From: Vicinamibacterales bacterium
Lineage (GTDB): Bacteria > Acidobacteriota > Vicinamibacteria > Vicinamibacterales > SCN-69-37
Reading direction: 5' to 3'
Assembly (NCBI GenBank): GCA_030827135.1
Contig: JAURFE010000005.1
Location: 66,257 to 130,256 of the forward strand
Length of the DNA: 64,000 nt
Below are positions 5,958 to 63,120 of the stretch, in pieces. Below the pieces are notes generated by a model. That model had not been told where the DNA came from and made no database searches. It saw only the letters and a list, made by a program, of their open reading frames with translations. The position numbers and the translations under genes are program-made. Position 1 is the first letter of the stretch, and each line of letters opens with the position of its first letter.

Positions 5958-5984
5958 GGTCCAGGGTCCAGGGTCCAGGGTTCA
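5957..5984. repeat. tandem GGGTCCA x3 + GGGTTCA (G3N4 x4, G-quadruplex motif)
   Basis: gggtccagggtccagggtccagggttca begins at the last base of the EEP stop codon TAG (5955-5957). Confidence 0.9.
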
Positions 5985-6010
5985 GAGGCCTTGGCATAAC
6001 CGGGATCATT

Positions 6011-6955: not shown

Positions 6956-7141
6956 ATGGCCGACCGTAAACCGTTCCTGCTGCGCATGGATCGCCAGATG
7001 CTCGACGCGTTGCAGCGCTGGGCCAACGACGACCTGCGCAGCCTGAACGGACAGATTGAGTTTGTGCTTCGCCGGGCCCTGCAGCAGACCGGGCGGCTGC
7101 CTGAGCCCCCAGCGGACCGCGGTCCGCGAACCGCGGACTGA
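6956..7141 (+). CDS. Arc/MetJ-type ribbon-helix-helix DNA-binding protein
   Basis: PFLLRMDRQMLDALQRWANDDLRSLNGQIEFVLRRAL has the Arc-like RHH pattern. Starts 15 nt after the SPFH stop. Confidence 0.65.
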   Translation: MADRKPFLLRMDRQMLDALQRWANDDLRSLNGQIEFVLRRALQQTGRLPEPPADRGPRTAD

Positions 7142-7152
7142 GGACCGCGGGC
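7113..7152. terminator. GC-rich repeat/hairpin cluster (GGACCGCGG x3, palindrome GGACCGCGGTCC) between convergent genes
   Basis: cggaccgcggtccgcgaaccgcggactgaggaccgcggg spans the RHH stop (7139-7141) and ends 5 nt before the converging stop at 7157. Confidence 0.4.
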
Positions 7153-11100: not shown

Positions 11101-11239
11101 CGGCTTCCCGATGCACTTCGACTGGTCGTGGAAGACACACCTCAATCGCGACTACGAGGACCTGATCTACTACTTCTACGGCGGCAGCGAAGCTTTCCGG
11201 AAGGTCAAGTTCTCGTTCTGGATCGGCTATGACTTCTGA
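8135..11239 (+). CDS. large outer-membrane protein: peptidase-MA-like domain + TolB/PD40 beta-propeller + Omp85-like C-terminal barrel
   Basis: Signal peptide ending PVAAQ. HELTHVFE plus downstream VDEGLANY (HExxH...E). PD40-like repeats (SPDGTRVAF, APDGRTVVY). The C-terminal ~350 aa show an amphipathic beta pattern ending FSFWIGYDF. ATG 8135 follows GAGGTGAG; the ORF opens at GTG 8126. Confidence 0.85.
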   Translation: MLMRRPRILARVTTLLAVVMATLIAAPVAAQTPFVPYFGKNRVKYDKFQWHIYQTEHFEIYYYPELEPHLERIASYAESAYQRISSELKHDLAKRVPLILFKTQSEFQQQDISGSELPEGVLAFAEPYRDRMVLPIDEPPDQLYRLITHELTHVFEFDVIPRGLMGSSIPLWVDEGLANYMAGYWNVLDLMQVRDAALTDSVPRMSEFESQPLSGRLPYSMGHAAFEFISSKWGQDGLRQFLFSLRKNVIGGGESAYEEALRVKPDEFDEQFERYIKERFRAFRDQERPADYGRNLAPRRDRSQYVSVLSIEPSPIGDVIATVVGNSRDQELDIILISAKDGQVIRNLTKGFDHRRGWEYIATAGGLRGNMVPWISWAPKGDRIAYFVRTEKHKTLVIQDVVSGRIEQRLNLEQVDAPESPAFSPDGTRVAFSALKGAVSDIFVVDLATGDLTNLTDDAFADYAPTFAPDGRTVVYTARVSGNDKLFRVGATGGAKTQLTFGTHDDTAAKFFDATTVYFISTATDPAVMLAPDVARDGNIPNIWSLNLATGELQQWTDTATGNVSPAILREGTTTRVAFVSYYKGENGIHVMSRDKALLAVPSSDFGAPGPIIDFQPPLSHTLVRDNIQRKGPWEKLTLDGRPPVNLGVTSGGDFFGGTQVSFTDLLGGKQINFFASSVSQYRTMALTYINVENRVQYSAQAFSQDVFYYGQLDNYLYGAGLVPFIDRDRALSVRTQRGVTGFAIYPFNRYTRLELSGGYVYLRERFADEELQDLSEQYQRENFGTTFYQSGHVVPLGLSLVHETTVFRDYGPVSGTAANIGVQYSPKIGNSLTRRTVEGDVRFYQRIGTNGVLAFRGRGLKSWGTNPDFLFFGGNSEMRGYEYLEFIGHKAFFANLELRIPLVEAMLTPLGVVGGLRGTAFFNVGGAGINGQSFSPFASKVEILPVLVDYEFDPFRGYTPVYQDVLFSGFRLKDARAAYGIGLQSFLLGFPMHFDWSWKTHLNRDYEDLIYYFYGGSEAFRKVKFSFWIGYDF

Positions 11240-11266
11240 TGCGGCGCTTGCCGCGCATCAGAAGTC
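11231..11266 (+). terminator. stem-loop overlapping the stop codon of the 8135-11239 gene
   Basis: gacttctgatgcg (11231-11243) pairs perfectly with cgcatcagaagtc (11254-11266), giving a 13-bp stem. There is no clear T-tract. Confidence 0.5.
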
Positions 11267-11415
11267 ATTGAGGATGGAGGATTGAGGATTGAGGATTTAT
11301 TGTGGGAATGAGGAATTGGGATTGAGGGATTGAGGGATTGAGGGATTGAGGGATTGAGGGATTGAGGCGACGCCGAACACCACAAATCCTCAATCCTCAA
11401 TCCTCCATCCTCAAT
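11267..11415. repeat. ATTGAGG-family element: 32-nt perfect inverted repeat flanking ATTGAGGG x5.9 tandem core
   Basis: Left arm attgaggatggaggattgaggattgaggattt (11267-11298) is the exact reverse complement of 11384-11415. The core at 11321-11367 is attgaggg repeated: five G3 tracts with 5-nt loops. Confidence 0.95.
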
Positions 11416-11430
11416 AACACGCTATACACC

Positions 11431-13110: not shown

Positions 13111-14031
13111 ATGCCCCGTGTTTCGTATGAGGAGGATCGTGTGATTGCAGTGTCTCGGTGTGCGGCCGCCCTGGCGGCGTCCGTCCTGGTCGTATTTTCG
13201 GCGCCATTCGTCAGTGTCGCGCAGGCCCAGACGCCGGCCCCCGCTCCCCCGGACGCCGACGACTACGCCATCAACCTGCTCCAGCCGGATTTCGGGCTGG
13301 TGGCGCTCCCCACGTCCCTGCGCATCCCCCAGGGGCGGTTCGCGTTCCGGATGAGCCACCGCTTTTCACGGCCGGTCGCGGGCACCTGCCCCGACGCCGG
13401 CCCGAAGCCCGACGGCTGCGGCGGCGTTGGCGCGTTCGTCGAGAACTTCTTCGGCTTTGACAGCAGTGCGAAGGTGGGCTTCGAGGTGCGATACGGCGTC
13501 GTCTCCGGCACCCAGGTCGCCCTGCAGCGGACCAACGACCGCGCCATCCAGGTCCTGGCGCAGCACCAACTGTTCCGGAGCGCGTCGCAGCCGGTGACGG
13601 TCGACGTCCTCGCGGCCGTGGAAGGCCAGAACAACTTTCGCGAGACGCACACGCTGACAGCCGGTGCGGTCGTGACGTATCTGGCGTCCGACCGAGGCGC
13701 GCTCTACGCGCATCCCGTCCTGCTCTTCAACTCGAATCCCGCCTCCGACACCGACACCGACGACAACCACACGGTGTTGCTCGGCGTCGGCGGACGCCTG
13801 CGTCTCGGTCAGACGAAGATGTATCTGGTGGCCGAGGCGGCCCCGCGACTGGCCGGCTTCAAGCCGGGGGTGGACCACATCTCGTTTGGCTTCGAACATC
13901 GGGCCGGCGGCCACATGTTTCAGCTGAACGTCTCGAACTCGTTCGGGTCCACGCTGCGCCAGGTCGCCCTCGGAGGTCCCGGCAACGGCGACTGGTTCAT
14001 CGGCTTCAATCTGTCACGGAGGTTCTACTGA
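13111..14031 (+). CDS. putative outer-membrane beta-barrel protein (DUF5777-like)
   Basis: Signal peptide ...VFSAPFVSVAQAQ. Alternating beta pattern and an aromatic C-terminus NLSRRFY. Start is uncertain (ATG 13111 or GTG 13141 after GGAGGA). The track start 13012 overlaps the ferredoxin gene. Confidence 0.6.
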   Translation: MPRVSYEEDRVIAVSRCAAALAASVLVVFSAPFVSVAQAQTPAPAPPDADDYAINLLQPDFGLVALPTSLRIPQGRFAFRMSHRFSRPVAGTCPDAGPKPDGCGGVGAFVENFFGFDSSAKVGFEVRYGVVSGTQVALQRTNDRAIQVLAQHQLFRSASQPVTVDVLAAVEGQNNFRETHTLTAGAVVTYLASDRGALYAHPVLLFNSNPASDTDTDDNHTVLLGVGGRLRLGQTKMYLVAEAAPRLAGFKPGVDHISFGFEHRAGGHMFQLNVSNSFGSTLRQVALGGPGNGDWFIGFNLSRRFY

Positions 14032-14414
14032 TGCGCGCTGCCCTGCTCGTCTGTCTGTGCGCCGCCACCGCTGCCGCGTGCGGCGGCAGTTCGACGCCCA
14101 CCACCCCAGGCGGCAACACCACGCCGACGGCCACCAACACGATCACCATCACGTCGGCCGGCGCCAGTCCGCGCAACATCCAGATCGCCCCCGGCACCCG
14201 GGTGACGTTCGTCAACAACGACTCGCGGTCCCACAACATGACCAGCGACCCGCACCCCGAGCACACGCAGTGCCCTGAACTGAATCAGGTCGGCCTGCTC
14301 GCCGCCGGCCAGTCGCGCGAATCCGGCAACCTCAACACCGTCCGCACCTGCGGCTTCCACGATCACGACAATCCCGGGGTCGCGAACCTCACTGGGACGA
14401 TCACGATTCGATAA
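14031..14414 (+). CDS. small cupredoxin-like lipoprotein
   Basis: Lipobox AAACGG and a Thr/Pro linker. A single beta-sandwich-sized domain with SHNMTSDPHPEH and TCGFHDH (a Cys-x2-His pair, no obvious Met ligand). The ATG shares one base with the upstream stop (TGATG). Confidence 0.55.
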   Translation: MRAALLVCLCAATAAACGGSSTPTTPGGNTTPTATNTITITSAGASPRNIQIAPGTRVTFVNNDSRSHNMTSDPHPEHTQCPELNQVGLLAAGQSRESGNLNTVRTCGFHDHDNPGVANLTGTITIR

Positions 14415-14566
14415 GGCAATTGGGCAATGGGGCAATGAGGCAATGGAATGAGGCAATGTGGCAGTGGGCCAATGATGAGTGTTGGGGTCGCGCTGTAGTC
14501 ATTACCCTATTGGCCCATTGCCTCATTCCATTGCCTCATTGCCTCATTGCCCCATTGCCTCATTCC
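14415..14566. repeat. GGCAATGR-family palindromic array
   Basis: ggcaattgggcaatggggcaatgaggcaatggaatgaggcaatgtggcagtgggccaat, then a centre, then attggcccattgcctcattccattgcctcattgcctcattgccccattgcctcattcc. Lies between convergent genes and overlaps the kinase stop at 14560-14562. Confidence 0.95.
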
Positions 14567-21221: not shown

Positions 21222-21376
21222 GTGGTTCGTGGTTCATGGTTCATCGGTTCATGGTTCAGCGGTTCTGTTCATGGTTCTGGGTGCCGGGTTCGTCGTTCAA
21301 GGTTCAAGGTCGGTTCGAGGTTCCTCGGAACCCCGAACCAGCACCATGAACCATGAACCGATGAACCATGAACCCC
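21222..21376. repeat. GGTTCAT-family palindromic array
   Basis: The 27-mer ggttcatggttcatcggttcatggttc (21231-21257) has its exact reverse complement at 21348-21374. The 90-nt centre contains further degenerate units. Confidence 0.95.
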
Positions 21377-21382
21377 GTTGGC

Positions 21383-25486: not shown

Positions 25487-26377
25487 ATGGAACGCAAGAC
25501 GGCTGCTGACTTTGATCCGGAAGTGCTGATTCTGTTCGACGCCTACGTGCACGGCCACATCGACCGCCGTGGCTTTCTGGATCGCGCGTCCAAGTTTGCC
25601 GTGGGCAGCGTCACGGCGGGGATGCTGCTTGACTCGCTGAGCCCGAACTTCGCGGCCGCGCAGAAAGTGGCGAAGGACGACAGCCGCCTCAAGGCCGAAT
25701 ACGTCGAATACCCGTCGCCGCAGGGTTCGGGCACGATGAAGGGATACCTCGTGCGTCCGGCGAAGGCGGCCGGCAAACTGCCGGGCGTCGTGGTCTTTCA
25801 TGAAAACCGCGGCCTGAACCCGCACATCGAGGACATCACACGTCGCCTTGCGCTCGACAACTTCATCGCGTTTGCGCCCGACGCGCTGACACCGCTTGGC
25901 GGCTATCCGGCCTCCGGCGAAGACGAAGCGCGGACGCTGTTCGGCAAACTCGATCGGGCGAAGACGGCCGAGGACATGCTCGCCGGCGCGAAGTTCCTGC
26001 AGGCGCACGCCGAATGCACGGGCCGCATCGGAGCCGTGGGGTTCTGCTGGGGCGGGAGTACCACCAAGACCCTCGCATCGCGCATGCCGGACCTGGCAGC
26101 CGCGGTGCCGTTTTACGGGGGCGGCCAGGTCGCCGAAGCCGCCACGATCAAGGCGCCGATGCTGATCCACTACGCAGGCACCGACCCCCGCATCAACGAT
26201 GCGTGGCCGGCCTACGAGGCCGCCCTGAAGGCTGCTGGCGTCCAGTATCAGATGTTCATGTACGAGGGCACGCAGCACGGCTTCAACAACGACACGACGC
26301 CCCGTTTTGACGAAAAGGCCGCGGCCCTCGCCTGGTCACGGACGGTCGAATTCTTCAATAAACACGTGCGCCAATGA
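25487..26377 (+). CDS. dienelactone hydrolase family protein with Tat-like signal
   Basis: DRRGFLDRASKFAVGSVTAGMLL...AAAQ (twin-Arg signal), nucleophile elbow GAVGFCWGG, C-terminal GTQHGF. ATG 25487 follows GGAGG. Confidence 0.85.
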   Translation: MERKTAADFDPEVLILFDAYVHGHIDRRGFLDRASKFAVGSVTAGMLLDSLSPNFAAAQKVAKDDSRLKAEYVEYPSPQGSGTMKGYLVRPAKAAGKLPGVVVFHENRGLNPHIEDITRRLALDNFIAFAPDALTPLGGYPASGEDEARTLFGKLDRAKTAEDMLAGAKFLQAHAECTGRIGAVGFCWGGSTTKTLASRMPDLAAAVPFYGGGQVAEAATIKAPMLIHYAGTDPRINDAWPAYEAALKAAGVQYQMFMYEGTQHGFNNDTTPRFDEKAAALAWSRTVEFFNKHVRQ

Positions 26378-26407
26378 GGCAATGAGGCAATGCCCCTTTG
26401 CCTCATT
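26371..26407. repeat. minimal GGCAATGR-family hairpin (likely terminator)
   Basis: ccaatgaggcaatgaggcaatgcccctttgcctcatt. The 10-bp stem is aatgaggcaa/ttgcctcatt. It contains the DLH stop TGA at 26375-26377. Confidence 0.85.
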
Positions 26408-44521: not shown

Positions 44522-44558
44522 GGTCCAGAGGTCCAGGGGTCCAGGGGTCCAGGGGTCC
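44522..44558. repeat. GGTCCAGR tandem 8-mers x4.5 filling the boxC-boxB spacer
   Basis: ggtccagaggtccaggggtccaggggtccaggggtcc. Confidence 0.95.
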
Positions 44559-46221: not shown

Positions 46222-46270
46222 AGTCGTCCCCGATCGTATGCGCCACCATCCGGACCGTCAAGGTCGCACA

Positions 46271-46284
46271 TGCAGTATAGTGCG
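46271..46284. promoter_or_regulatory. TGCA-N6-TGCG motif in the boxC/boxR divergent region (candidate BoxR operator)
   Basis: tgcagtatagtgcg, embedded in gcaca...gtgcgc. Confidence 0.35.
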
Positions 46285-46295
46285 CTTGGCGGATT

Positions 46296-46327
46296 GGCAG
46301 TTGGGCGACTGGGCGACTGGGCAGATG
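46296..46327. repeat. tandem 8-mers GGCRNYTG x4 in the box promoter region
   Basis: ggcagttg ggcgactg ggcgactg ggcagatg. Confidence 0.85.
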
Positions 46328-46362
46328 GCCGTTCGCCAACCCGCACACCTGCACATCAACTC

Positions 46363-46376
46363 AGCATTATAATGCT
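46363..46376. promoter_or_regulatory. perfect 14-bp palindrome AGCATTATAATGCT overlapping the boxR start codon
   Basis: Self-complementary on inspection. It has a 4-6-4 architecture like TGCA-N6-TGCA and contains TATAAT and the ATG at 46372. Confidence 0.4.
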
Positions 46377-47106
46377 CGACGTGTCTGCTCTCCTCGCCGA
46401 CCTCGGCCATCGCGTCCGCGCGCATCGCACCCGCGGCGGGATGACGGTGCGCGAGTTGGCGATGGCGGCGGACTTGTCCACGCGGTTTCTGTCGGAAGTG
46501 GAGGCGGGGCGAGGGAACATTTCGGTCAGCCGGCTGGCGATGCTTGCACAGGCGCTGGGCGTTGACATCACCACATTGCTCGCGCCGGATGAACGCACCG
46601 GCACGCGGTCGATCGCACTGCTGGGCCTCCGGGGCGCAGGCAAGACCACGATCGGACGCCGTCTCGCCCGCCGCCTGAAACTGCCCTTCGTCGAACTCGA
46701 CACCCACATTGCCGCGCGAGCCGGCATGGCGCTCGGCGAAGTCTTTTCCCTCTACGGCGAGGACTACTACCGCCAGATCGAGCGTGCGGCGCTGACCGAC
46801 GTCCTCGGCGACTCGACCCCCAAGGTCATCGCCACCGGCGGCGGCCTGGTGACCGCCGGCGAGACCTTTGCCCTCCTGCAGCGCCACGCCACCACCGTCT
46901 GGCTCAAAGCCCGGTCCACCGACTACTGGAATCGGGTCGTCAAACAAGGCGACCGCCGCCCGACCGACCATCCCCAGGCCCGCGAGGCCCTCCGCGACCT
47001 GGTCTCCCGGCGCGATCCCCTCTATCGCCAGGCCGACTTGACCATTGACACCTCAGGCCTCACCATCGCCCAGACCGTGGACCGCGTCGCCCGTGCACTC
47101 GACTAA
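46372..47106 (+). CDS. boxR: BzdR/BoxR-type regulator: XRE helix-turn-helix fused to a shikimate-kinase-like domain
   Basis: MTVRELAMAADLSTRFLSEVEAGRGNISVSRLAMLAQALG (HTH_XRE), then P-loop LGLRGAGKTTIGRRLA and a shikimate-kinase-like remainder. Divergent from boxC. Confidence 0.8.
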   Translation: MLDVSALLADLGHRVRAHRTRGGMTVRELAMAADLSTRFLSEVEAGRGNISVSRLAMLAQALGVDITTLLAPDERTGTRSIALLGLRGAGKTTIGRRLARRLKLPFVELDTHIAARAGMALGEVFSLYGEDYYRQIERAALTDVLGDSTPKVIATGGGLVTAGETFALLQRHATTVWLKARSTDYWNRVVKQGDRRPTDHPQAREALRDLVSRRDPLYRQADLTIDTSGLTIAQTVDRVARALD

Positions 47107-47182
47107 GCAAAAGCCGGGTCGAAGTCGTATTCAGTCGCGGTAGAAACCGTTCCCAGCCCAGGGAATGAAGGAGCGCCCGTAT

Positions 47183-50213: not shown

Positions 50214-50237
50214 CGGGGTTCCGGGGTTCCGGAGTGC
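50214..50237. repeat. tandem CGGGGTTC x2 (+1 degenerate)
   Basis: cggggttccggggttccggagtgc, immediately after stop 50210-50212. Confidence 0.8.
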
Positions 50238-50250
50238 CGAAGTTCGCAGG

Positions 50251-50289
50251 GCCGGCTGGTGCGCAAGCATCAGCCGGCTCTTTTTTCTT
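50251..50289 (+). terminator. Rho-independent terminator
   Basis: Stem gccggctg (50251-58) pairs with cagccggc (50271-78), followed by tcttttttctt. Confidence 0.8.
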
Positions 50290-50330: not shown

Positions 50331-51350
50331 ATGTCCGCCCCCGAACCTGTCGTTCCAGTCTTTGCGACGTTTACAGGCCGGGGATCGGAGTACTTCCGCA
50401 TCTGGGCGGTGAACGTGGTGCTGACGGTGGTGACGCTGGGCACCTACTCGGCATGGGCCAAAGTCCGGCGCACGCAGTATTTCTACCGGCACACACAGAT
50501 CGCCGGGTCGAGCTTCGACTATCGCGGACGACCTGTGGCGATCCTCAAAGGGCGGATCGTCGCGGCCGGGCTGTTGTGGCTGTACTCGCTTGTCGGGTAC
50601 GTCAGCTGGCACATCGCCATCGCGATCCTTGCCGCGTTGGCGGCGGTGTTGCCCTGGCTCCTCGGCCAGTCCATCCGCTTCCGCATGGCGAACACACGCT
50701 GGCGCGGGCTGGCTTTCGGCTTCCATGGCTCGGTCGCGGAGGCGTATCGCGTGTTTCTCTTCTGGCCTCTCGCGACACTGGTGTCGCTGTCCTTGTTGTT
50801 CCCGCTGTGGAAGCAGCGCATCGCGGCCTTTCAGTTCGGCAACACCTCATTCGGCAGTCACCGGGCTCGCTGCACGGTCGACGCCGGTCCGTTCTACGCC
50901 GCCTACGTCCAGGTCTTCGTCCTCATGGCTGGACTCGTGGTGGCGGCGACGGCCCTGGCCTTCGGCGTAGGCGCGCAACTCGGGCCGTCAGCCGGTCTCA
51001 CGGCTTTCCTGATCCTGTATGCCCTGAGCTGGGTGGGGCTCTCGGGATTCCTCGCGGCACGCATCCAGGAGGCGACGTGGAGCGCGACCCGCATCGGGAC
51101 GCACCGGGTCTCCCTGCGGATGGACGGCCGGCGCCTGTCGTGGATCCAGCTGACCAATCTCCTGCTCACGATCGGCACTCTGGGCTTCTACCGCCCGTTT
51201 GCGCAGGTCCGCGTTGCCGCGTATTACGCGGCGTGTCTCGAACTCGCCCCAGGCACACCGCTCAACGACATCGCGCGCGCTGACGTGGCCGAATCTGGAG
51301 CAGCCGGTGATGCGACGATGGACCTCTTCAACCTGGACGTGACGTTGTGA
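50331..51350 (+). CDS. DUF898 (YjgN) family multi-pass membrane protein
   Basis: FTGRGSEYFRIWAVNVVLTVVTLGTYSAWAKVRRTQYFYRHT and a second repeat ending LTIGTLGFYRPFAQVRVAAYY. ATG at 50331. Confidence 0.8.
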   Translation: MSAPEPVVPVFATFTGRGSEYFRIWAVNVVLTVVTLGTYSAWAKVRRTQYFYRHTQIAGSSFDYRGRPVAILKGRIVAAGLLWLYSLVGYVSWHIAIAILAALAAVLPWLLGQSIRFRMANTRWRGLAFGFHGSVAEAYRVFLFWPLATLVSLSLLFPLWKQRIAAFQFGNTSFGSHRARCTVDAGPFYAAYVQVFVLMAGLVVAATALAFGVGAQLGPSAGLTAFLILYALSWVGLSGFLAARIQEATWSATRIGTHRVSLRMDGRRLSWIQLTNLLLTIGTLGFYRPFAQVRVAAYYAACLELAPGTPLNDIARADVAESGAAGDATMDLFNLDVTL

Positions 51351-52333
51351 TGCACGCGACGTGGTTTGATGGCCAGACGGCCACGCCTCATGAGGCCACC
51401 CTCAGCATTGCGCACCATCGCGTGCGGATACACACCGCACACGGTTCGTTCGAGTGGGCGCTGAGTAAGGTGCACCTCACACCCGAACTGGGGACAGCGC
51501 CCAGATGGATGTATTGCCCTGACGGCGGGGCGTGCCAGATCACGGACGTCGCCGCCTTGCGCGCCGCGCTCACGGCAACAGGCCAACCGGTGAGTGTGGT
51601 GACGCAGTGGCACGACGACATGCGCCTGGTCCTCGGCGCAATCGGGGCCTTGATCGCGGTCGTGGTCACGGCCTACCTGTTCCTGCTGCCTCCCGCTGCG
51701 GATGCCCTGGCGCGCCGCCTGCCTGACTCGGCGCTGGACATCCCCAGTCAGACCGCCGCACTGTGGCTCGAGGAGCAGATCTTTGAACCCACCCAACTCA
51801 CTCCACAGCGCATCATCGAATTGCAGGCGCTGCTGAACAGCCTTGAGCTGCCGGACGTTCCCGATCGCCGTCCCATTCGCCTCGAATTCCGACGCAGCGC
51901 ACAACTCGGCCCAAATGCGATCGCACTGCCGTCAGGGTTGATCGTGATGACCGACGAACTCGTGGCGCTGTCGACCGATGACCGCGCGCTGCTCGGCATC
52001 CTCGCCCATGAAGCCGGTCACATCGAGGGACGACACGGCCTGCGGCAACTCATCAAGGATTCGACAGTGGGCCTGATCATCGCGGGGTTGCTCGGTGACG
52101 TGAACGGCGCCCTGCTGATTGCGCCAACCGCTTTTCTCAAGACGCGCCACTCCCGCCAGTTCGAAGAAGAAGCCGACGCGTTCGCGATTGACGTGCTCAC
52201 GAAGATGGGCATCCCCACCGCGCCGATGGCCGACCTGCTGGCCGCCATGCCCAGCACCGGCCAAACCCCCGGCTATCTCTCCACGCACCCACCGACGCCG
52301 GAGAGGGTTCAGAGGCTAAAGCATAGGCAATGA
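51347..52333 (+). CDS. M48 family zinc metallopeptidase with N-terminal extra domain and TM helix
   Basis: HEAGHIEGRH (HExxH) and downstream EEEAD. The start overlaps the DUF898 stop (GTGATG). Confidence 0.85.
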   Translation: MMHATWFDGQTATPHEATLSIAHHRVRIHTAHGSFEWALSKVHLTPELGTAPRWMYCPDGGACQITDVAALRAALTATGQPVSVVTQWHDDMRLVLGAIGALIAVVVTAYLFLLPPAADALARRLPDSALDIPSQTAALWLEEQIFEPTQLTPQRIIELQALLNSLELPDVPDRRPIRLEFRRSAQLGPNAIALPSGLIVMTDELVALSTDDRALLGILAHEAGHIEGRHGLRQLIKDSTVGLIIAGLLGDVNGALLIAPTAFLKTRHSRQFEEEADAFAIDVLTKMGIPTAPMADLLAAMPSTGQTPGYLSTHPPTPERVQRLKHRQ

Positions 52334-52492
52334 GGCAATGAGGCAATGAGGCAATGGGGCAATGGGGCAATGGAATTGCCCCAATGGCTCAATGGGCGAA
52401 TGCAATTCCGGCAATTCTGATAATTGAATTGAAGCATTGCGGAATTGCCCCATTCCATTGCCTCATTGCCCCATTGCCCCATTGCCTCATTC
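52326..52492. repeat. GGCAATGR-family palindromic array (largest copy)
   Basis: Six units at 52326-52373 and complementary units at 52455-52491. The centre is AT-richer. Lies between convergent genes. Confidence 0.95.
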
Positions 52493-52493
52493 T

Positions 52494-53201
52494 CTAAATG
52501 GCCGTTTCCCCCGGCTGCAGTTCGAGCACCTCGATATCGGTGCCCTTCAGGTGCTCCTTGAGCATCGCGGGAGTACCGGTCAGCAGCGGAAACGTGCCCC
52601 AATGCATGGGCACGACCTGGCGGACGCGAAGCCACTGCGCTGCGATCGCGGCAGTGTCGGGCCCCATCGTGTAGTGATCGCCGATCGGCAGAAACGCGAT
52701 CTCGGGCTTGTACAGATCCGCGATGATCTTCATGTCCCCGAATAGCGCCGTGTCGCCGGCGTAGTAGATCGTCGGCATCCCTGGCTGACGCAGCACAAAC
52801 CCGGCTGCTCCGCCGAGGTACACGATCTGGTTCCCGTCGGTGTGACTCCCCGAGTGCACCGCATTCGTCATCGTCACCCGCACTCCCGCCACCTCCTGGG
52901 TGCCGCCGATGCCCATGTCGCGCACATCCTTGAGCCCCTTTGCTCCGAGGTACTGCCCCACTTCGTAGAGGCAGACGACCGGCGCGCCGGACTCGCGGGC
53001 GACCTGGACGGTGTCCCCGAGGTGGTCCCCATGCCCGTGCGACAGCAGAATCAGGTCCAGCGGCTGCACCGACGCGGCCTTCGCCCACTCCGCAGGACAC
53101 GACGGATTGCCCAGCCACGGGTCACACACAATGCGCGTGCCAACGGGGGTTTTCAGGAGGAATGCCGAGTGACCGAGCCACGTGATACCAAGTCCGGACA
53201 T
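52494..53201 (-). CDS. metallo-beta-lactamase-fold hydrolase (UPF0173-like)
   Basis: ITWLGHSAFLL and LLSHGHGDH (HxHxDH); 235 aa. Confidence 0.85.
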   Translation of the reverse strand: MSGLGITWLGHSAFLLKTPVGTRIVCDPWLGNPSCPAEWAKAASVQPLDLILLSHGHGDHLGDTVQVARESGAPVVCLYEVGQYLGAKGLKDVRDMGIGGTQEVAGVRVTMTNAVHSGSHTDGNQIVYLGGAAGFVLRQPGMPTIYYAGDTALFGDMKIIADLYKPEIAFLPIGDHYTMGPDTAAIAAQWLRVRQVVPMHWGTFPLLTGTPAMLKEHLKGTDIEVLELQPGETAI

Positions 53202-53227: not shown

Positions 53228-53338
53228 GGGTTCATCGGTTCATCGGTTCATGGTTCAGCGGTGCTGAACCCGGCACCACAAACCCGGCACCAAGAACCAA
53301 GAACAGAACCATGAACCCTGAACCGATGAACCATGAAC
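53228..53338. repeat. GGTTCAT-family array (degenerate) in a divergent intergenic region
   Basis: gggttcatcggttcatcggttcatggttcagcggtgctgaacc ... gaaccatgaaccctgaaccgatgaaccatgaac. Confidence 0.9.
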
Positions 53339-53349
53339 AGCCGTAAGAG

Positions 53350-54273
53350 ATGCCCACTTTCGATTTACCCCTGATCCGCGGTCGCCACCAGCGGCAGACG
53401 CCCCTGGCCAAAGAACAAAAGCCGGAGTGGCTGAAAGTCCGGGCACCGGGCTCTGAGAACTACGTGCGGATCAAGGGCCTGATGCGCGACATGGGCCTGC
53501 ACACCGTGTGTGAAGAGGCGCATTGCCCGAATATCGGGGAGTGCTGGCATCACGGCACGGCGACGTTCATGATCATGGGCGACACATGCACGCGCGCGTG
53601 CACGTACTGCAACGTCAACCACGGGACGCCCGAGAAGCTCGACGCCGACGAACCGCACAAACTCGCGCACGCGGTGGACACGATGGCACTCGAATACGTC
53701 GTCGTCACATCCGTCGACCGCGACGACCTCCCCGACTTCGGCGCCGGACACTTTGCTGAAACGATCCTCGCGATCCACGCCAAGCGCCCCGCCTGTCAGG
53801 TTGAAGTGTTGATTCCCGACTTCCAGGGGCAGGAAGGGCCGCTCCGCACCGTGCTTGAGGCCAGGCCGAACATCCTCAACCACAACATGGAGACCGTGCC
53901 GCGCCTCTATCGCGTCGCGCGCCCAGGCGGCAAATACGATCGCGCGCTCGAACTGCTCGACCGCGCCCGTCGATGGGCGCCATCAATCCCCACCAAGACC
54001 GGTCTGATGGTCGGCCTCGGCGAAACGTTCGATGAAGTTGTAGACGTCCTCAAGGACCTGCGCAAGATCGACACGCAGATCCTGACGATCGGCCAGTATC
54101 TGCGTCCCTCACTCGCTCACATCCCGATGGACCGTTATTACACGCCCGACGAGTTCAAGGAATTCAAGCGCATCGCCCTCGACCTCGGCTTCGGCCATGT
54201 CGAGTCCGGCCCCCTCGTGCGCTCGTCGTACCACGCGCACGAACAGACAAAATCGTTTGAAGCCAAGCAGTAG
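53350..54273 (+). CDS. lipA: lipoyl synthase
   Basis: CEEAHCPNIGECW (auxiliary cluster) and CTRACTYCNV (radical-SAM CxxxCxxC); 307 aa. Confidence 0.95.
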   Translation: MPTFDLPLIRGRHQRQTPLAKEQKPEWLKVRAPGSENYVRIKGLMRDMGLHTVCEEAHCPNIGECWHHGTATFMIMGDTCTRACTYCNVNHGTPEKLDADEPHKLAHAVDTMALEYVVVTSVDRDDLPDFGAGHFAETILAIHAKRPACQVEVLIPDFQGQEGPLRTVLEARPNILNHNMETVPRLYRVARPGGKYDRALELLDRARRWAPSIPTKTGLMVGLGETFDEVVDVLKDLRKIDTQILTIGQYLRPSLAHIPMDRYYTPDEFKEFKRIALDLGFGHVESGPLVRSSYHAHEQTKSFEAKQ

Positions 54274-54349
54274 GGCGCGCTGGTCTTGAGCGCGACTCGC
54301 CCCAGCCGACGATGGTATCGTCGTCGTCTTACCGGGCGGGGTGCGGAAC

Positions 54350-54544
54350 ATGAAGGAAATCCTTGATCGGCTCGATCGGATGGATGCGGGCTTCCAGAAG
54401 CAGGGCGTGCAGTTGGAGGCGTTGCAGGACGACGTGAAACAGGCACTGGAAGGTATTTCCGGCAACCGGAAGGTCCTGGATGACAAGTTCGCCGAGGTGC
54501 TGCAGAAGCTCGACGAGCGCGTGAAGCCGAAGAAGCGGGCCTGA
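54350..54544 (+). CDS. small coiled-coil hypothetical protein
   Basis: MKEILDRLDRMDAGFQKQGVQLEALQDDVKQALEG...KPKKRA. High GC3. A GTG at 54341 is also possible. Confidence 0.5.
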   Translation: MKEILDRLDRMDAGFQKQGVQLEALQDDVKQALEGISGNRKVLDDKFAEVLQKLDERVKPKKRA

Positions 54545-54573
54545 ATTGCCCTGACCGGTAGAATGGTCCCGAT

Positions 54574-55206
54574 ATGCGCTCCGTCGTTCTTTCGCTATTG
54601 GCCGTCCTGAGCCTGGTACCACTCGGCGCGCGGCCACAGTCTCCCCTGCTCACCCCCGCCGCACTCAACGCGACGGCCCCGGCTGAGTTCGACGCGATGG
54701 TGAACACCTCGGTCGGCAGCTTTGTGATTCACGTGAAGCGCGACTGGGCGCCGAATGGCGCGGACCGGTTCTACAACCTCGCGAAGAACGGCTACTACGA
54801 CCAGAATCGGTTCTTCCGCGTCATTCCCCAATTCATGGCGCAGGTGGGATTACATGGTGACCCGGCGATCGCTGCCGCGTGGAAGGATGCAACCATTGAG
54901 CCCGACCGCGCGATCATGAGCAACATCCGCGGCATGGTCACGTTTGCGAAGGGCACACTCGCCTCCTCGCGCACCACACAGTTCTTCATCAACTTCGGGA
55001 ACAACTCGCGCCTCGACATCGACGGCTTCGCGCCGTTCGGCCAGGTCATCACCAGCATGGTGCTCGTCGAACGCCTCTACAGCGAATACGGCGAAGGCCC
55101 CGACCAGGGAGCCATCATCGCCAACGGGAATGCCTGGCTCGTCCGCAACTTCCCGCGCATGGACTTTATTCGGAGCATTCAAGTCAATGAGGCAATGGGG
55201 CAATGA
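54574..55206 (+). CDS. cyclophilin-type peptidyl-prolyl cis-trans isomerase, secreted
   Basis: Signal peptide. FFRVIPQFMAQVG and MVTFAKG...TQFFINF. The last six codons lie in the repeat. Confidence 0.9.
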   Translation: MRSVVLSLLAVLSLVPLGARPQSPLLTPAALNATAPAEFDAMVNTSVGSFVIHVKRDWAPNGADRFYNLAKNGYYDQNRFFRVIPQFMAQVGLHGDPAIAAAWKDATIEPDRAIMSNIRGMVTFAKGTLASSRTTQFFINFGNNSRLDIDGFAPFGQVITSMVLVERLYSEYGEGPDQGAIIANGNAWLVRNFPRMDFIRSIQVNEAMGQ

Positions 55207-55357
55207 GGCAATGAGGCAATGGAATGCCCGCATGGGTGAATGAGCCAATGGAATGGCCGTAATCACTCAATCACTCAATTACATTGCGGGAATTGCATTA
55301 ACCCATTAGCCAATGGCGGCAATTCCATTGCCTCATTGCCTCATTGCCCCATTGCCT
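55185..55357. repeat. GGCAATGR-family palindromic array
   Basis: caatgaggcaatggggcaatgaggcaatgaggcaatggaatg ... ccattgcctcattgcctcattgccccattgcc. The centre contains aatcactc x2. Lies between convergent genes. Confidence 0.95.
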
Positions 55358-55362
55358 AATTC

Positions 55363-57909
55363 TTAAGCGACCTCAAAGATCCGTACCCGTCGCAGCAGCA
55401 GATCGCCGGCCCAGGCAAATGCCGCGAAGAGCACCAGCCACGGCCACAGGGCGATGCGCGAAGCGCGTGAGTCGCCGGCGCCGCGCTCGAGGGCGGCGGG
55501 TTCCGGCATGACCGACCCGCCCGTGGAATCGGCGATGGCCGCGAGCAGCGACGTGTCGGGCTGCTGGAAGCGATATTCGGCCCCCTGGTCGGGCACAAAA
55601 CTCCGCGACAAGGCTGATGTATCCGGTAGCGTGGCGTCCACCAGTTCGGCGTCGACGGCCACGGTCGAATCAGTCGTGAGCCTGGCTTCGTAGCGGCCGG
55701 GCGCCACCTGACGAGCAACAAGCGTGCGCTCGATGTCGCCGGCCTTCACGCGGATGTTGGGACGCATGAGATTGCGCGGCTTGCCCTGTTCGTCGCGAGC
55801 CTCGACGGTCAACGTCACCGATCGACTGGTGCCGCGCGCAGCGCCCACTTCCATGTCGAGTGCCCATGGCACAGGGCGCTGACCGGCGAGTTCACGCACA
55901 ACCGCGGAGAAGAAGGGACCGTAGCCGCGCCACCGCACCCAGTCGGCGGCCCAGCGGTCCTTCACGTCGGACGCGAACACGGCCGCACGACCGGCGCCAA
56001 TCGGCCAGAACGCGAGGAGTGGGTCCTCTTCCTCGGTGCCGAGCATCTCAAGCGCCGTGTCCTTGATCACCGTCGCCGTACGGCCACGCAACGCGGGTGC
56101 CGTCGAAAAATCGATCCCGTCAAGGAACCCGAGATGTTTCACCACGGGCTTCAGCGGCTTTTCGTCGAAGCCCGGGGACATGATGTCCTTGGCTTCCTTC
56201 ACGAAGATCTGCGGCACGTCCTTGGGATTGTCGGCGGCATAGTTGCGGCCCTTGCCCCACTTGGCGATATTCGTCAGCAACTCACGGTCGGCAGCCGCGC
56301 CCATGGCGACCGTGGACACGGTCATCTTCTCCGCGACCATCTTGTTGACGAGCGTCTCGTAATCGTCGGGATACGACCGGCCATCCGAAAGCAGCAACAC
56401 GTGTTTCGCGCGCGCCTTCAACTTCTGCAGCGCCATGTAGCCCTGCTCCACCGCCGGAAAAATCAGCGTGTGACCACTCGGCTCGATGCCGGCGATGGCT
56501 TTTGCAATCGACTGCCGGTTCGGACCGACCTGCTGCGGCAGCAGCGTCCAATCCAGCCCGTCGTTAAACGTCACGATCCCAAGCGTGTGTTCGTCATCCA
56601 TGACGTCCACCGCCGCCTGAGCGGAAATCCGGAGCATCTCGATGTTGGTGCCGGCCATCGACCACGACTTGTCGAGCACCATGATGAGCGCCACCTCGGG
56701 TTCGTCCTTGCGCTCGAAGGTCACGGGCAACAGGCGTTCGAGTGCCGACTCGCGGTAGCCGTCCTCGCCGAAGACCGCCTCCCCACCCGCCACCAGCAAG
56801 CCGCCGCCGGACTGCTCCACCCACTCGGCAAGCACCGCGATCTTCGGATCGGGCATCGTCGACTTGGCAAGGTCACTCAGAATCACCACTTCAAACGGCG
56901 CGAGTTCGGTCAGCGTTCCCGGCAAGCCCGCGGCTCCGCGAGTTTCGACGTCAAACCCTGACTGGTCGAGTGCCGTCTGCAGATACCGCGCCGACTGCGG
57001 CGTACCTTCGATGTACAGGACTTTCGGTCGCGGCGCGACCCACGCGGCCTGCAACAGGCGATTGTTCTCCCGCAGCGGGTCCCCAGCCGTCGTCACCACC
57101 GCTTCAAACGTCGTGGCGCCGGCATCGTCAAGCGACACTTCCAGAGCCACCGGCGTCACGCCGACCGTCAACGGCAGTGTCTTGGTCGCGAGCACCCGAT
57201 CGCCGCTTTTCAGTTCGACGACCCCGCTCACAGCCCGCTGACTGCCAATCTCGACGGTCACCGGCACCAGGCCACCAGGCGACAGGCGCTGCGGCAGGCG
57301 CACCGCCTCCACCCACGTGTCGCCGATGTCGCGAGGCGCCAGTGGATACACGTGCACGGGAATGCCCGACGCCGCCAGCTGCGTCACCGCAGCCGTCACA
57401 TCGCCACTGGTTGAACGCGCATCGGTGAACAGCACGAGCCGCGGCACATGACCCGGCGCAAGCTCGGCCCGCGCGGCAGCAAGCGCCGCCTCGAGGTCCG
57501 TGCCCGTGCGGTCAAACGTTGCGCCTGCGGCCGCATCGGCATCCACCACCTGCTGCAATGCCTGCACCGACTCCACCACCTGCGCGCTGCGGGCGAACGC
57601 GACAATGCGGGAGTGGTCGGGGCGCAGTCCGTCGTTGAGCGCGGTGATGCGGGCCCCGGCATCGGCGACCGCGGCGGATGACACGCTGTAGGACGCGTCC
57701 ACGAGATAGACGACTGAAAGATTCGACGAGCCGATCTGCATGACGGGCCGCGCGAGGGCCACGGCGAGCGCGATCAGCACGAGTGCACGCACGACCTGCT
57801 GCAGCAGGTGCTGACGCGGACTGAAATTCGTACGCGAGAACTTGCTGGCCACCCACACGAGGGGCACCAGGGCCAGCAGCCACAAGGCGGAGGGCACGGT
57901 CCAGATCAC
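55363..57909 (-). CDS. large membrane-anchored protein with two VWA-like domains (Bat-like operon, last gene)
   Basis: MIDAS-like VDASYSVS and LDKSWSMAG, with N- and C-terminal TM helices. The proposed GTG 57909 overlaps the upstream stop (GTGA). Confidence 0.75.
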   Translation of the reverse strand: MIWTVPSALWLLALVPLVWVASKFSRTNFSPRQHLLQQVVRALVLIALAVALARPVMQIGSSNLSVVYLVDASYSVSSAAVADAGARITALNDGLRPDHSRIVAFARSAQVVESVQALQQVVDADAAAGATFDRTGTDLEAALAAARAELAPGHVPRLVLFTDARSTSGDVTAAVTQLAASGIPVHVYPLAPRDIGDTWVEAVRLPQRLSPGGLVPVTVEIGSQRAVSGVVELKSGDRVLATKTLPLTVGVTPVALEVSLDDAGATTFEAVVTTAGDPLRENNRLLQAAWVAPRPKVLYIEGTPQSARYLQTALDQSGFDVETRGAAGLPGTLTELAPFEVVILSDLAKSTMPDPKIAVLAEWVEQSGGGLLVAGGEAVFGEDGYRESALERLLPVTFERKDEPEVALIMVLDKSWSMAGTNIEMLRISAQAAVDVMDDEHTLGIVTFNDGLDWTLLPQQVGPNRQSIAKAIAGIEPSGHTLIFPAVEQGYMALQKLKARAKHVLLLSDGRSYPDDYETLVNKMVAEKMTVSTVAMGAAADRELLTNIAKWGKGRNYAADNPKDVPQIFVKEAKDIMSPGFDEKPLKPVVKHLGFLDGIDFSTAPALRGRTATVIKDTALEMLGTEEEDPLLAFWPIGAGRAAVFASDVKDRWAADWVRWRGYGPFFSAVVRELAGQRPVPWALDMEVGAARGTSRSVTLTVEARDEQGKPRNLMRPNIRVKAGDIERTLVARQVAPGRYEARLTTDSTVAVDAELVDATLPDTSALSRSFVPDQGAEYRFQQPDTSLLAAIADSTGGSVMPEPAALERGAGDSRASRIALWPWLVLFAAFAWAGDLLLRRVRIFEVA

Positions 57910-59705
57910 ACCGTGATCCTCCGGTGCCAGGTCCACCACTCGACCAGCACCAACAAAAAGGCGATCCCAATGATCCATGGCCACCACGGATCGTTGGCGC
58001 GCGCGGCTGCGGATTGCGCCTGCGCTTCGTCACTCAATGATGTGCGGTTGACGTTGGAGACCTGCGGGTCGCCGACGTTCACGGCAAACGTCGTCCGCAT
58101 GCCGCCGCCCTCCGCCAGATACAACCCCGGCTTGGGGAAGCGCACCAACTGGGCGTCACCGAATGCGGTGGTCGGCAGCGTCTCGCCGTCGGCCGACATC
58201 ACGCGCGTCAGCGCCGCATCCACCGCAACCACCCCGGGCCGCAGCTGGCCGGCCAGCGTCGGCCGCCCGAGCCACTCAATCGCATTCACGACCAGCACGG
58301 GGAACGCCGGCTGCAGCGCGACGTTTGATTCGGCTTCAAGGAAGCCGAAGCCGAGCATCACGCCGCGGGCCTCGGTGGTTTCCTTCACGCTGACAAGCGG
58401 CACACCCGTCGCCGAGCGGGCCACGGGTGTCCACGCCTCGGATTCAACCGAGCGGGCGCGTTCGAGCATGACGGTCGCAGGATCCACACCGCGAAGCACG
58501 GGATGCCGGTCCGCCGTGGCCCACACCGGCTTGGATTCATCACGCGATGTGCCGAGCCACCCCGTGCCGGGTGTCAACATCGGCGAGACAAACAACGCGG
58601 GCTTGGTCGGCGCAGCCGGCGGCACCCAGTGATCAAACACAAGCACGTGTTCGGCCCCCTGTCGCGGCTGGTCGTACGCACCAGGCGCGATGTAGGTCAC
58701 GCGCATGCCGGGCAGGCTGTCGAACAGCACCTTCAGAAACCCGGGCTCCGGCGTCACCACCGTCACCGACAACTGCTCGGCGCGGGCAATCCACGCCACG
58801 GCTTCATCATCCACCGCCAACGCATTGTTGGGCGCGCTGATGCGGGCCCGCACGCGGGCGTCGCCTTCGGTGCCGAGCGCCACCACCTGCCGCACAGCTT
58901 CACCGGCGGCAAGGTCGATCTGCACGTCGCCGACTTCGCGAGTGCCACGGGCGACCACAAGACGCGCGGTCTGCGCCTCGGCGCTGTAGTTCGCAAGCTC
59001 CAGATACCCTTCCGCCTGCGCAGTCGGGTCGCCGGGCTCGTAGACCTCAAACGCCGTAATCGCCACGTTCGGCGCCGCTTCGTACACCGACTGCACCACA
59101 ACATCCGCGCCTGTCGCTTCGAGGTCGGCCATCGCGCGCGGCACGGTGCCGTCGGTCAGGAAATGCACCTTGCTGACATTCGCAAGCCTCGGCCAGTCGC
59201 TGCCTTCCCCGCCGGAGGGGACGAGCCGGTCGAGCGCCGCTTCGAGCAACACGGCGTCCGTGGACGGGCCTTCGACGAGTCCATCGGCCGTCGTCGCAAC
59301 CGCGACTTCATCACCGGCAGACGCCTGAATCAACGCGCGCGCTTCGGCGAGGGCACGGTCCCACCGGGTTTCGCCCGCCGAGGTTGCGGCGCCCATTGAC
59401 CACGAGGAATCCAGAATGATGAGCCGGCGGCCACCACCCGCCGCGGTCACGCTCGGCGCCGGGCGCATCACGGCGAGCACCAGCATCACGCCGATCAGCG
59501 TGATGACAATCCACGACACGACCTTGCGGATGCGTTCCCACAGGGTCATTTCGCGTGCCTCGTCGAGCACGCGCTGCCACAGCAGCAGCGACGGCACCGC
59601 CACGCGCGGCGCCCGAATCTTCAGAAAGAACAGCCAGGAAAACAGGCCCGCCGTTGCCAGCAACGCGAGCCAGGCCTGCCATCCCGCCAGGGCGCCAAAA
59701 CTCAT
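57906..59705 (-). CDS. BatA-like protein (aerotolerance-regulator N-terminal domain + VWA domain)
   Basis: The N-terminus LFFLKIRAPRVAVPSLLLWQRVL resembles BatA_N. MIDAS ILDSSWSMGA. C-terminal TM helix. The ATG overlaps the DUF58 stop (ATGA). Confidence 0.8.
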   Translation of the reverse strand: MSFGALAGWQAWLALLATAGLFSWLFFLKIRAPRVAVPSLLLWQRVLDEAREMTLWERIRKVVSWIVITLIGVMLVLAVMRPAPSVTAAGGGRRLIILDSSWSMGAATSAGETRWDRALAEARALIQASAGDEVAVATTADGLVEGPSTDAVLLEAALDRLVPSGGEGSDWPRLANVSKVHFLTDGTVPRAMADLEATGADVVVQSVYEAAPNVAITAFEVYEPGDPTAQAEGYLELANYSAEAQTARLVVARGTREVGDVQIDLAAGEAVRQVVALGTEGDARVRARISAPNNALAVDDEAVAWIARAEQLSVTVVTPEPGFLKVLFDSLPGMRVTYIAPGAYDQPRQGAEHVLVFDHWVPPAAPTKPALFVSPMLTPGTGWLGTSRDESKPVWATADRHPVLRGVDPATVMLERARSVESEAWTPVARSATGVPLVSVKETTEARGVMLGFGFLEAESNVALQPAFPVLVVNAIEWLGRPTLAGQLRPGVVAVDAALTRVMSADGETLPTTAFGDAQLVRFPKPGLYLAEGGGMRTTFAVNVGDPQVSNVNRTSLSDEAQAQSAAARANDPWWPWIIGIAFLLVLVEWWTWHRRITV

Positions 59706-63005: not shown

Positions 63006-63033
63006 TTACGTACGGCTCTGGGCTGGAACACAC

Positions 63034-63118
63034 GGTTCATGGTTCATCGGTTCATGGTTCCGGGTGCTGTTCCGGGTGCTGGGTTCCCCATGAACCATGA
63101 ACCGATGAACCATGAACC
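63034..63118. repeat. GGTTCAT-family palindromic array
   Basis: 27-mer arms at 63034-63060 and 63092-63118 are identical to those at 21231/21348. The 31-nt centre contains cgggtgctg twice. Confidence 0.95.
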
Positions 63119-63120
63119 AG

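Follow-up and report, generated by a model that had tools for sequence, protein, structure and literature searches.

The stretch of DNA analysed here, 64,000 nucleotides of contig JAURFE010000005.1 from a Vicinamibacterales bacterium (hereafter the window), carries between two convergent genes an array of six perfect GGCAATGR octamers that is answered by complementary octamers further downstream. This locus raises the question of what such a palindrome is and how it came to lie at the end of a gene. A first-pass annotation, made from the letters alone, had placed the six units at 52326-52373 and the complementary units at 52455-52491, and the sequence is exactly as claimed. The left arm of this element, which we call element C, reads GGCAATGA three times and GGCAATGG three times on the plus strand. 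The core at 52374-52454 contains 18 unit-derived 5-mers, i.e. decayed unit fragments, in 81 nt, and the right arm (minus orientation) is built of four YCATTGCC units of the types CCATTGCC and TCATTGCC with a terminal TCATT. With somewhat more confidence than doubt, we regard the GGCAATGR palindromes as a dispersed, non-coding family of foldback repeats of the Acidobacteriota that is copied between sites and whose arms drift by slippage.

The same design was found at two further loci and in a minimal copy, as had been noted, with boundaries at 14415-14564 (element A), 55183-55361 (element D) and 26370-26407 (element B). The left arm of element A (14415-14475, plus) contains GGCAATTG, GGCAATGG, GGCAATGA and further units, and its right arm (14507-14564, minus) ends in a partial TCATT unit. 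Element D has five units in the left arm (55183-55222, plus), a core (55223-55324) that holds a second small array, AATCACTC, and a right arm of four units and TAATT (55325-55361, minus). Element B, on the plus strand, consists of GCCAATGA GGCAATGA GGCAATG, an 8-nt spacer and one complementary unit. Its three units thus face a single one, with a 10-bp stem of -20.3 kcal/mol (z -4.1). The 15-mer GGCAATGRGGCAATG was matched 23 times in the window with at most one mismatch, where 100 shuffles gave 0.00, and the 8-mer unit 36 times, where 4.95 +/- 2.36 were expected; the array counts are so far above the shuffles that chance is excluded. RNA folding, which had been proposed as a check, predicted stable stems on both strands. 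For locus C the energies were -97.7 and -104.7 kcal/mol, for element A -107.4 and for element D -101.4 kcal/mol, and the three large elements have predicted stems of 40-60 bp on both strands (z -8.3 to -10.2). The folding was also strong with DNA parameters. No Rfam family reached its gathering score in the window. The permissive Rfam matches were sub-threshold eukaryotic models of miRNA precursors and were discarded as generic long hairpins.

The distribution of the octamer was determined by an exact scan for three consecutive perfect units, with one genome per species. GGCAATGR arrays were present in at least 111 stretches, and among the matches listed most were metagenome-assembled genomes (MAGs) of Acidobacteriota. 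These were labelled Solibacteraceae, Vicinamibacterales or unclassified and often had many loci per MAG: CAWFLT01 carries more than 12, and the window four in 64 kb. Nearly all arrays are intergenic. Proteins of the window are 81-93% identical to open reading frames (ORFs) in L033 and L015 and 83-89% identical to those in L044 and L079. This places the window in the Acidobacteriota, although the family label is not reliable. The labels of the MAGs conflict, with Solibacteraceae and Vicinamibacterales loci being similarly close to the window. Matches were also found in Bacteroidota, Pseudomonadales, Chloroflexia, Paenibacillus and others, as arrays of a single orientation in genomes of different G+C content, and these look like independent simple-sequence expansions. 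Viral contigs contained no GGCAATGR arrays, and literature searches returned no description of such elements in Acidobacteriota. One contig binned as Acidimicrobiia, L030, has an ATTGAGG hairpin (4425-4491) and a GGCAATGR hairpin (5487-5540), i.e. both families of the window, which suggests mis-binning or a transfer from a relative of the window organism.

The arms of the elements have a fixed polarity. The order 5'-(GGCAATGR)n…(YCATTGCC)n-3' was observed in 51 of 51 pairs of arrays that have opposite orientations and lie no more than 300 bp apart. Hairpin formation alone demands no fixed arm order, and an unbiased inverted duplication in situ would yield both orders. The outer ends also stand in a constant phase, with AATGR before the first full unit and YCATT at the other end. 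Position-specific counts over 142 outer flanks showed background composition beyond position -5, and the stem of the element stops at the termini with no continuation into the flanks. An impression by eye of A- or T-rich flanks was rejected, since these counts gave only AATGR and then background. Direct repeats flanking 49 elements occurred at chance level, so no target-site duplication was detected; the test is a weak one, as the ends may be off by a few nucleotides.

The loops between the arms fall into sub-families that are common to several loci and MAGs. One MAG has a ATACAGCGTGACGCAACGCTCT loop at four loci, a second MAG has this loop in inverted form, and a third MAG has a loop of the type GTGAATGAGGCAAT…CGAACTTCA. 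The cores of elements C and D in the window are homologous but oppositely oriented (z = 19.8 relative to shuffles), and L114 has the same core module. The homology of the two cores therefore shows that whole elements, arms together with core, have been copied between intergenic sites. Several elements (L012, L040, L075) are loopless perfect palindromes that are centred on a unit boundary. Long palindromes are unstable in bacteria, and a decayed, asymmetric centre is to be expected. The elements measure 40-180 bp with 3-13 unit copies per arm. The two arms of an element do not correlate in length (rho = 0.005). They can be very unequal, such as 24 nt against 104 nt, and the difference reaches up to 10 units.

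Slippage variation among strains had been predicted, and whole-unit indels were indeed found at loci C and D between strains with near-identical flanks. The flanks of locus C in the strain contigs match the window exactly, and those of locus D do so or show a single-base difference. At locus C the left arm differs by 16 bp, i.e. two units. At locus D the right arm differs by 8 bp, with one extra unit in L001 and L002, and the AATCACTC array of the core also differs by one unit (8 bp). The indels at these two loci are solely of 8 or 16 bp, lie within the arrays and affect one arm at a time, and locus A is invariant in eight contigs. This shows that the arms, once in place, grow and shrink independently in 8-bp steps, for which replication slippage is the inferred cause. 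As a separate observation, a coiled-coil-like ORF of 64 aa between lipA and the PPIase gene (window 54340-54545) carries an in-frame tandem duplication of 33 bp in two strain contigs (L003:3921-4264 and L004:3921-4263), one of which also has a 1-bp deletion.

The positions of the elements were then related to the neighbouring genes, which were called with an ORF heuristic based on the G+C content at third codon positions (GC3) and identified with Pfam. That three copies sit between convergent gene pairs was borne out by both the ORF calls and Pfam: cupredoxin-like(+)/GHMP kinase(-) at element A, M48(+)/MBL-fold(-) at element C and cyclophilin PPIase(+)/VWA(-) at element D. The stop codons of these pairs are 0-7 nt from the element or within it. 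The cupredoxin-like gene (14031-14414, plus) has its TAA stop directly before element A, and the stop of the GHMP kinase gene on the minus strand, seen as TCA at 14560-14562 on the plus strand, lies within the terminal TCATT. The M48 peptidase gene (51347-52333, plus) stops at the TGA of the first unit of element C (52331-52333), and the MBL-fold gene (52494-53201, minus) ends 3 nt from the element. At element D, units 1-3 encode the last seven codons of the PPIase and its TGA (55204-55206), and the VWA gene (55363-57987, minus) ends 2 nt away. Element B lies between the co-directional genes for a dienelactone hydrolase (plus) and an amidase (plus), and is not convergent; the hydrolase gene stops at the TGA in the first unit (26375-26377). 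The plus-strand genes at C, D and B therefore all stop at TGAs in array units.

Across the genomes, a census of the orientation relative to gene ends showed that the family is biased to 3' ends. Hairpins of GGCAATGR were found at 19 convergent, 20 co-directional and 3 divergent junctions, where 9.5, 23.2 and 9.3 were expected from the junction frequencies in related DNA (p = 8e-4; p-values are nominal here because the loci were preselected, come from few MAGs and are possibly orthologous). Within 40 nt of a gene 3' end lay 87 of 135 outer array ends, and the elements begin 0-18 nt from stop codons. In 44 of these 87 cases the gene stops within the element; the stop codon belongs to a full unit in 32 of them and to the terminal AATGA in 12. 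Gene 3' ends are thus the main location of the copies, and roughly one in two abutting genes has its stop within the element. As the unit length of 8 nt is not divisible by 3, GGCAATGA units give a TGA in all three frames within 24 nt, and an element that lands on a gene end therefore swaps only a few C-terminal residues. Such altered C-termini were seen in the PPIase of the window, with its last seven codons, and in lipA of L033. Copies in divergent spacers exist (L044), so the 3' bias is not absolute.

Arrays with a single arm are oriented in sense to the flanking co-directional genes in a ratio of 27:6. In several co-directional contexts with a single sense array (L018, L049, L078, L090, L093, L115 and L116) the upstream gene stops in the first units and the last ATG of the array is in frame with the downstream ORF, although an artefact of ORF calling could equally explain this arrangement. 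Each AATGAGGC unit offers an AUGA start/stop overlap and a GAGG motif. The single sense arrays recall the mycobacterial interspersed repetitive units (MIRUs), which overlap stop and start codons.

Orthologous junctions were compared with the window to see the turnover of the elements. L033 is syntenic with the MBL-lipA-PPIase region at about 82% nucleotide identity and differs from it by growth or shrinkage, gain or loss, and replacement of elements. Its element at the PPIase end is a mini GGCAATGR hairpin of about 43 bp, compared to about 179 bp in the window, and the 3' end of its lipA has a GGCAATGR hairpin where the window is empty. Likewise, the window lacks an element in its divergent spacer at 46222-46375, where L044 has a GGCAATGR element, and a junction near 47107 is occupied in L105 but not in the window or L044. 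At the 3' end of the MBL gene and in the MBL/lipA spacer the window has a GGCAATGR and a GGTTCAT hairpin, respectively; L033 has single heptamer arrays at both sites (CACTCCG and GTGCGGA), with (GTGCGGA)x6 in a spacer of 79 bp. Many MBL orthologues of 46-75% identity have a tandem-repeat hairpin directly after the stop that is built from other units (AGGTCAG, AGTCAGA, CTCCCAA/ATCCCAA, GGTCCGCT, GCCCGCA or CGATCACC), and other orthologues have no repeat hairpin there. In L033 the MBL-fold gene is also bracketed by inverted heptamer arrays about 730 bp apart, (CACTCCG)n at 640-675 on the 3' side and (CGGAGTG)n at 1410-1450 in the 5' spacer. A gene of the window (6065-6940) is similarly bracketed by (AGGGTCC)n at 5956-5985 and (GCGGACC)n at 7112-7150.

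The annotation had also pointed to an architecture shared with a GGTTCAT family. This is real and wider than claimed, as it extends to ATTGAGG in the window and to CTCCCAA, AGGTCAG, GGTCCGCT and others in relatives, and at least five unit families share the inverted-array hairpin. In the window, the GGTTCAT…ATGAACC hairpin at 21224-21377 lies between two co-directional minus-strand genes, a second GGTTCAT hairpin (53229-53338) fills the divergent MBL/lipA spacer and a third (63031-63119) has a 27-nt stem of 100% complementarity. The (ATTGAGG)n…(CCTCAAT)n hairpin at 11264-11418 has a 41-nt stem, and its loop contains a one-sided octamer expansion, GATTGAGG, of about 7 copies. A family-agnostic census of 304 kb, based on Tandem Repeats Finder, found tandem hairpins in all junction types. 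Every family with two or more copies open to comparison keeps a single polarity (GGTTCAT 3/3, CTCCCAA 5/5, ATTGAGG 2/2, AGGTCAG 2/2). A rule that the G-rich arm comes first was rejected, as the CTCCCAA and ATCCCAA hairpins start with the C-rich arm. Stop codons would fit as the cause of polarity in GGCAATGR and ATTGAGG. Both arms of CTCCCAA are free of stops, however, and in GGTTCAT only the right (3') arm, read 5' to 3', contains any, so that this cause was rejected as a general one. Since the polarity of CTCCCAA is fixed without stops, polarity is inherited and not selected through stop codons.

We considered how a foldback family of this kind might arise and persist. The copying mechanism leaves no detectable target duplication. 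Each arm would then lengthen or shorten by replication slippage, and the centre would decay to an asymmetric core, as expected of long palindromes. Copies would persist at 3' ends, because the outward arms carry TGA in three frames and cost few C-terminal codons, and copies in promoters would be selected against. When transcribed from either side, the 40-60 bp stem may impede read-through or 3' exonucleases, or may be cut by RNase III. The element would then act like the hairpins of repetitive extragenic palindromic (REP) sequences and bacterial interspersed mosaic elements (BIMEs) at 3' ends, and as an insulator between convergent genes. This hairpin effect would be a by-product, or secondarily exploited, and not the reason for the existence of the element. 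Several points weigh against this reading. No transposase or mobilising gene was found, the 518 ORFs around the 111 loci (among the matches listed) clustering into ordinary paralogous families, and no target-site duplication was detected at the 49 elements. The filled and empty sites are too diverged to fix exact insertion boundaries, and short units under concerted evolution could mimic homology of cores that consist of decayed units. The loci themselves were chosen for at least three perfect units, many come from few MAGs, and some are perhaps orthologous.

Much of the same evidence bears on other explanations. In a purely in-situ origin a seed would be expanded by slippage and the inverted arm made by template switching with no copying between sites, and the families would reflect mutational convergence. 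The unit-step indels between strains agree with this, as do the many unit families that replace one another at the same junction, the one-sided expansion in the loop of the 11264-11418 element, the loopless palindromes on a unit boundary, and an intergenic 7-mer excess in other bacteria that was ascribed to polymerase slippage (PMC4692102). We nevertheless hold it to be quite unlikely, since it cannot account for the presence of one octamer at four sites within 64 kb and at more than 100 sites across MAGs, the 51/51 polarity and the fixed polarity of the other families, the constant terminal phase, the non-unit loops shared between loci and MAGs, or the homologous cores of C and D. A second possibility, unlikely but deserving serious attention, is that the elements are dedicated bidirectional terminators or insulators, selected for the hairpin and placed between convergent genes against transcriptional collision, with slippage tuning the stem length. 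The very stable predicted stems on both strands and the short distance of 0-18 nt from the stop codons to the element start would fit such a role, as would the about 2-fold enrichment at convergent and about 3-fold depletion at divergent junctions. Different unit families occupy the same 3' end of MBL orthologues in several lineages, so that placement and architecture recur although the sequence is not conserved. Sites resembling canonical terminators barely exceed their number in shuffled sequence (16 vs 12.4 +/- 3.8; 19 vs 11.0 +/- 3.5), which also speaks for it. However, the termini have no U or A tract in the 142 outer flanks, a terminator consensus scan misses the elements, and a classic hairpin with a U-tract is present elsewhere in the window (50248-50281). 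Three other convergent junctions of the window lack a strong hairpin, many relatives have no element after the MBL orthologue, and elements also occur in divergent promoter spacers (L044; the GGTTCAT hairpin at 53229-53338) and, in the family-agnostic census, across all junction types. The arm lengths are uncorrelated and often very unequal, and the sense strand folds better in only 6 of 20 co-directional contexts (nominal p = 0.16). The bidirectional terminator proposed in the first-pass annotation is thus not supported as such, and a terminator role for the GGCAATGR hairpins may be called plausible but unproven.

The annotation had also proposed a protein or RNase landing pad, in which the octamer would be the functional unit and be bound by a sequence-specific DNA- or RNA-binding protein or recognised, as GGCAAUGR, by an RNase. 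The octamer is conserved in MAGs that share only 50-90% protein identity with the window, the single-arm arrays are co-oriented with the upstream gene (27:6) as an RNA-level signal would be, and the unit combines the AUGA overlap with a Shine-Dalgarno-like GAGG core, the ATTGAGG family sharing TGAGG. As a general function this is very unlikely, because relatives use unrelated units at orthologous junctions (CACTCCG, AGGTCAG, CTCCCAA, GGTCCGCT). In addition, no candidate gene for a binding protein recurs among the ORFs near the arrays, the motif is sequestered in a duplex in the hairpin copies, and periods of 7 and 8 bp do not match the turn of the DNA helix. If the arm with the stop codon is the one retained, the co-orientation of single arrays follows equally well. 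It is also quite unlikely that the elements are actively targeted near stop codons by a hairpin-specific enzyme and are slippage-tunable bidirectional insulators, a previously undescribed class of foldback simple-sequence elements in Acidobacteriota. If this were true, the number of 7- or 8-nt units per arm, which changes between strains, would set the read-through into the neighbouring gene, a rheostat resembling a contingency locus but acting on terminators and not on promoters or ORFs, and the unrelated families at the same gene ends would reflect selection for some such element. Artefacts of assembly or binning at low-complexity sequence in short-read metagenomes have also to be considered, as all data come from MAGs and metagenome contigs and the repeats are often near contig ends (e.g. 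L011, L013, L037, L045, L082). This explanation is barely credible: the same elements and flanks were obtained in at least 8 independent assemblies from different samples and pipelines, the differences between assemblies are clean whole-unit indels, and elements are found in the internal parts of contigs measuring 38-143 kb. The lipoyl synthase encoded at 53350-54273 is identical on 20 freshwater-metagenome contigs and one NCBI MAG, and since identical element sequences recur in independent ENA and NCBI assemblies, they are not assembly artefacts.

As a dispersed foldback family, the elements fit no single known family and are classed as related to the STRR (short tandemly repeated repetitive) class, REPs and MITEs (miniature inverted-repeat transposable elements). 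STRRs of 7 bp in filamentous cyanobacteria can form hairpins, for example between hupS and hupL (PMC2670836). GGGAATC repeats in Xanthomonas and Nostoc lie nearer to the 3' end of the upstream ORF than to the following ORF, and close relatives differ in repeat length (PMC4692102). TAACTGA repeats of the Beggiatoaceae were found as 169 direct sets and one indirect set, and their unit is common to distant taxa without a known vector (PMC4679880). The GGCAATGR elements resemble STRRs and other long-unit simple sequence repeats (SSRs) in the head-to-tail short units, the many dispersed intergenic loci and the copy-number polymorphism between strains. STRRs proper are, however, defined in heterocyst-forming cyanobacteria and have 7-nt units, whereas here the unit has 8 nt and the host is an acidobacterium. 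In contrast to STRRs and SSRs, the inverted-array hairpin is the rule here, with strict polarity, sharp termini, conserved cores and donated stop codons, and these last four features are not described in the STRR/SSR literature cited.

REPs are dispersed extragenic palindromes found downstream of coding regions, mostly where the flanking ORFs are co-directional or convergent. Their transcription and a part in termination or mRNA stabilisation are assumed, and one genome can contain several families (PMC3733652, PMC3116915). The placement between co-directional and convergent genes and downstream of genes is the same for our elements and for REPs, BIMEs and REPINs. A REP is, however, a single imperfect palindrome of 20-40 bp with a GTAG or CGTC tag and is associated with RAYT transposases (PMC3733652), whereas the elements described here have 40-180 bp, arms of tandem octamers and AATGR/YCATT ends and lack such a tag. 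No RAYT (Y1 transposase) was present among the 518 ORFs, in a search confined to the loci. Bacterial MITEs such as Correia/NEMIS, ERIC, RUP and a P. gingivalis MITE with an internal minisatellite are small and non-coding, have terminal inverted repeats and a conserved interior, show filled and empty sites between relatives and may overlap gene ends (PMC4596501, PMC2759123). Our elements share with them the small non-coding form, the terminal inverted repeats, the common internal sequence and the filled versus empty sites, but the inverted repeats are hypervariable tandem arrays and no target-site duplication was detected. We know of no parent insertion sequence for the GGCAATGR elements. The eukaryotic Foldback-type transposons (FB, Galileo, Tetris) have long inverted repeats made of short tandem repeats, a variable middle and a high structural dynamism (PMC4079207, PMC3573991). 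They are kilobase-sized and have transposases and target duplications, so that the likeness is one of architecture only. With Rho-independent bidirectional terminators the elements have in common a stable stem-loop directly after the stops between convergent genes that can fold on both strands, but they lack the U/A tract and have stems 3-6 times longer than is customary, whose length differs from strain to strain.

If this picture holds, several hairpin families with 7- or 8-nt units shape the intergenic space of a large and poorly studied phylum of soil and freshwater bacteria and rewrite the C-termini and stop codons of its genes. Their turnover between species of about 80% identity and their variation among strains would make them markers for strain typing. 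In MAGs of Acidobacteriota they would also repeatedly lead to broken contigs and to wrongly called gene ends. The family would give bacteria a counterpart to the eukaryotic foldback elements, and would offer a tractable system in which to study the origin, copying and tolerance of palindromic simple-sequence DNA.

Some further repeats and genes of the region were recorded. A near-perfect palindrome, GACTTCTGATGCG…GCGCATCAGAAGTC, overlaps the stop of a 1037-aa gene ending at 11239 and is followed by the ATTGAGG hairpin, both within 11230-11418. The GGTTCAT hairpin at 53229-53338 leaves only 27 nt to the called start of MBL and 11 nt to that of lipA. Single arms of a GGTCC type were seen twice. 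One, (GGTCCAGG)x4.6 at 44522-44558, takes up nearly the whole 46-nt spacer between two co-directional minus-strand genes, and the other, (AGGGTCC)x4.3 at 5956-5985, begins inside the TAG stop codon of a gene whose end is at 5957. In some relatives (L025:546-900, L140:130-363 and L152:1091-1330, minus) arrays of the types (GGTTCCG)n…(CGGAACC)n and GTTCGAAG appear to extend into the coding part of lipA at its 3' end, in which case tens of codons for the C-terminus of the protein would consist of repeat units. The sole convincing canonical intrinsic terminator in the 40 kb scanned (50214-50281) has a 15-bp stem and TTTTTTCTT, and is preceded by a (CGGGGTTC)x2.4 mini-array directly after the stop of a 1015-aa gene. 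The GC3 filter missed a gene at 46378-47106 that has an N-terminus resembling an XRE-type helix-turn-helix and is divergent to the gene ending at 46221. The spacer between them (46.2-46.4 kb) contains two -10-like boxes (TATAGT and TATAAT) and a (TGGGCGAC)x2.6 mini-array, and in the orthologous spacer of L044 a full GGCAATGR hairpin lies between the equivalent -10-like boxes.

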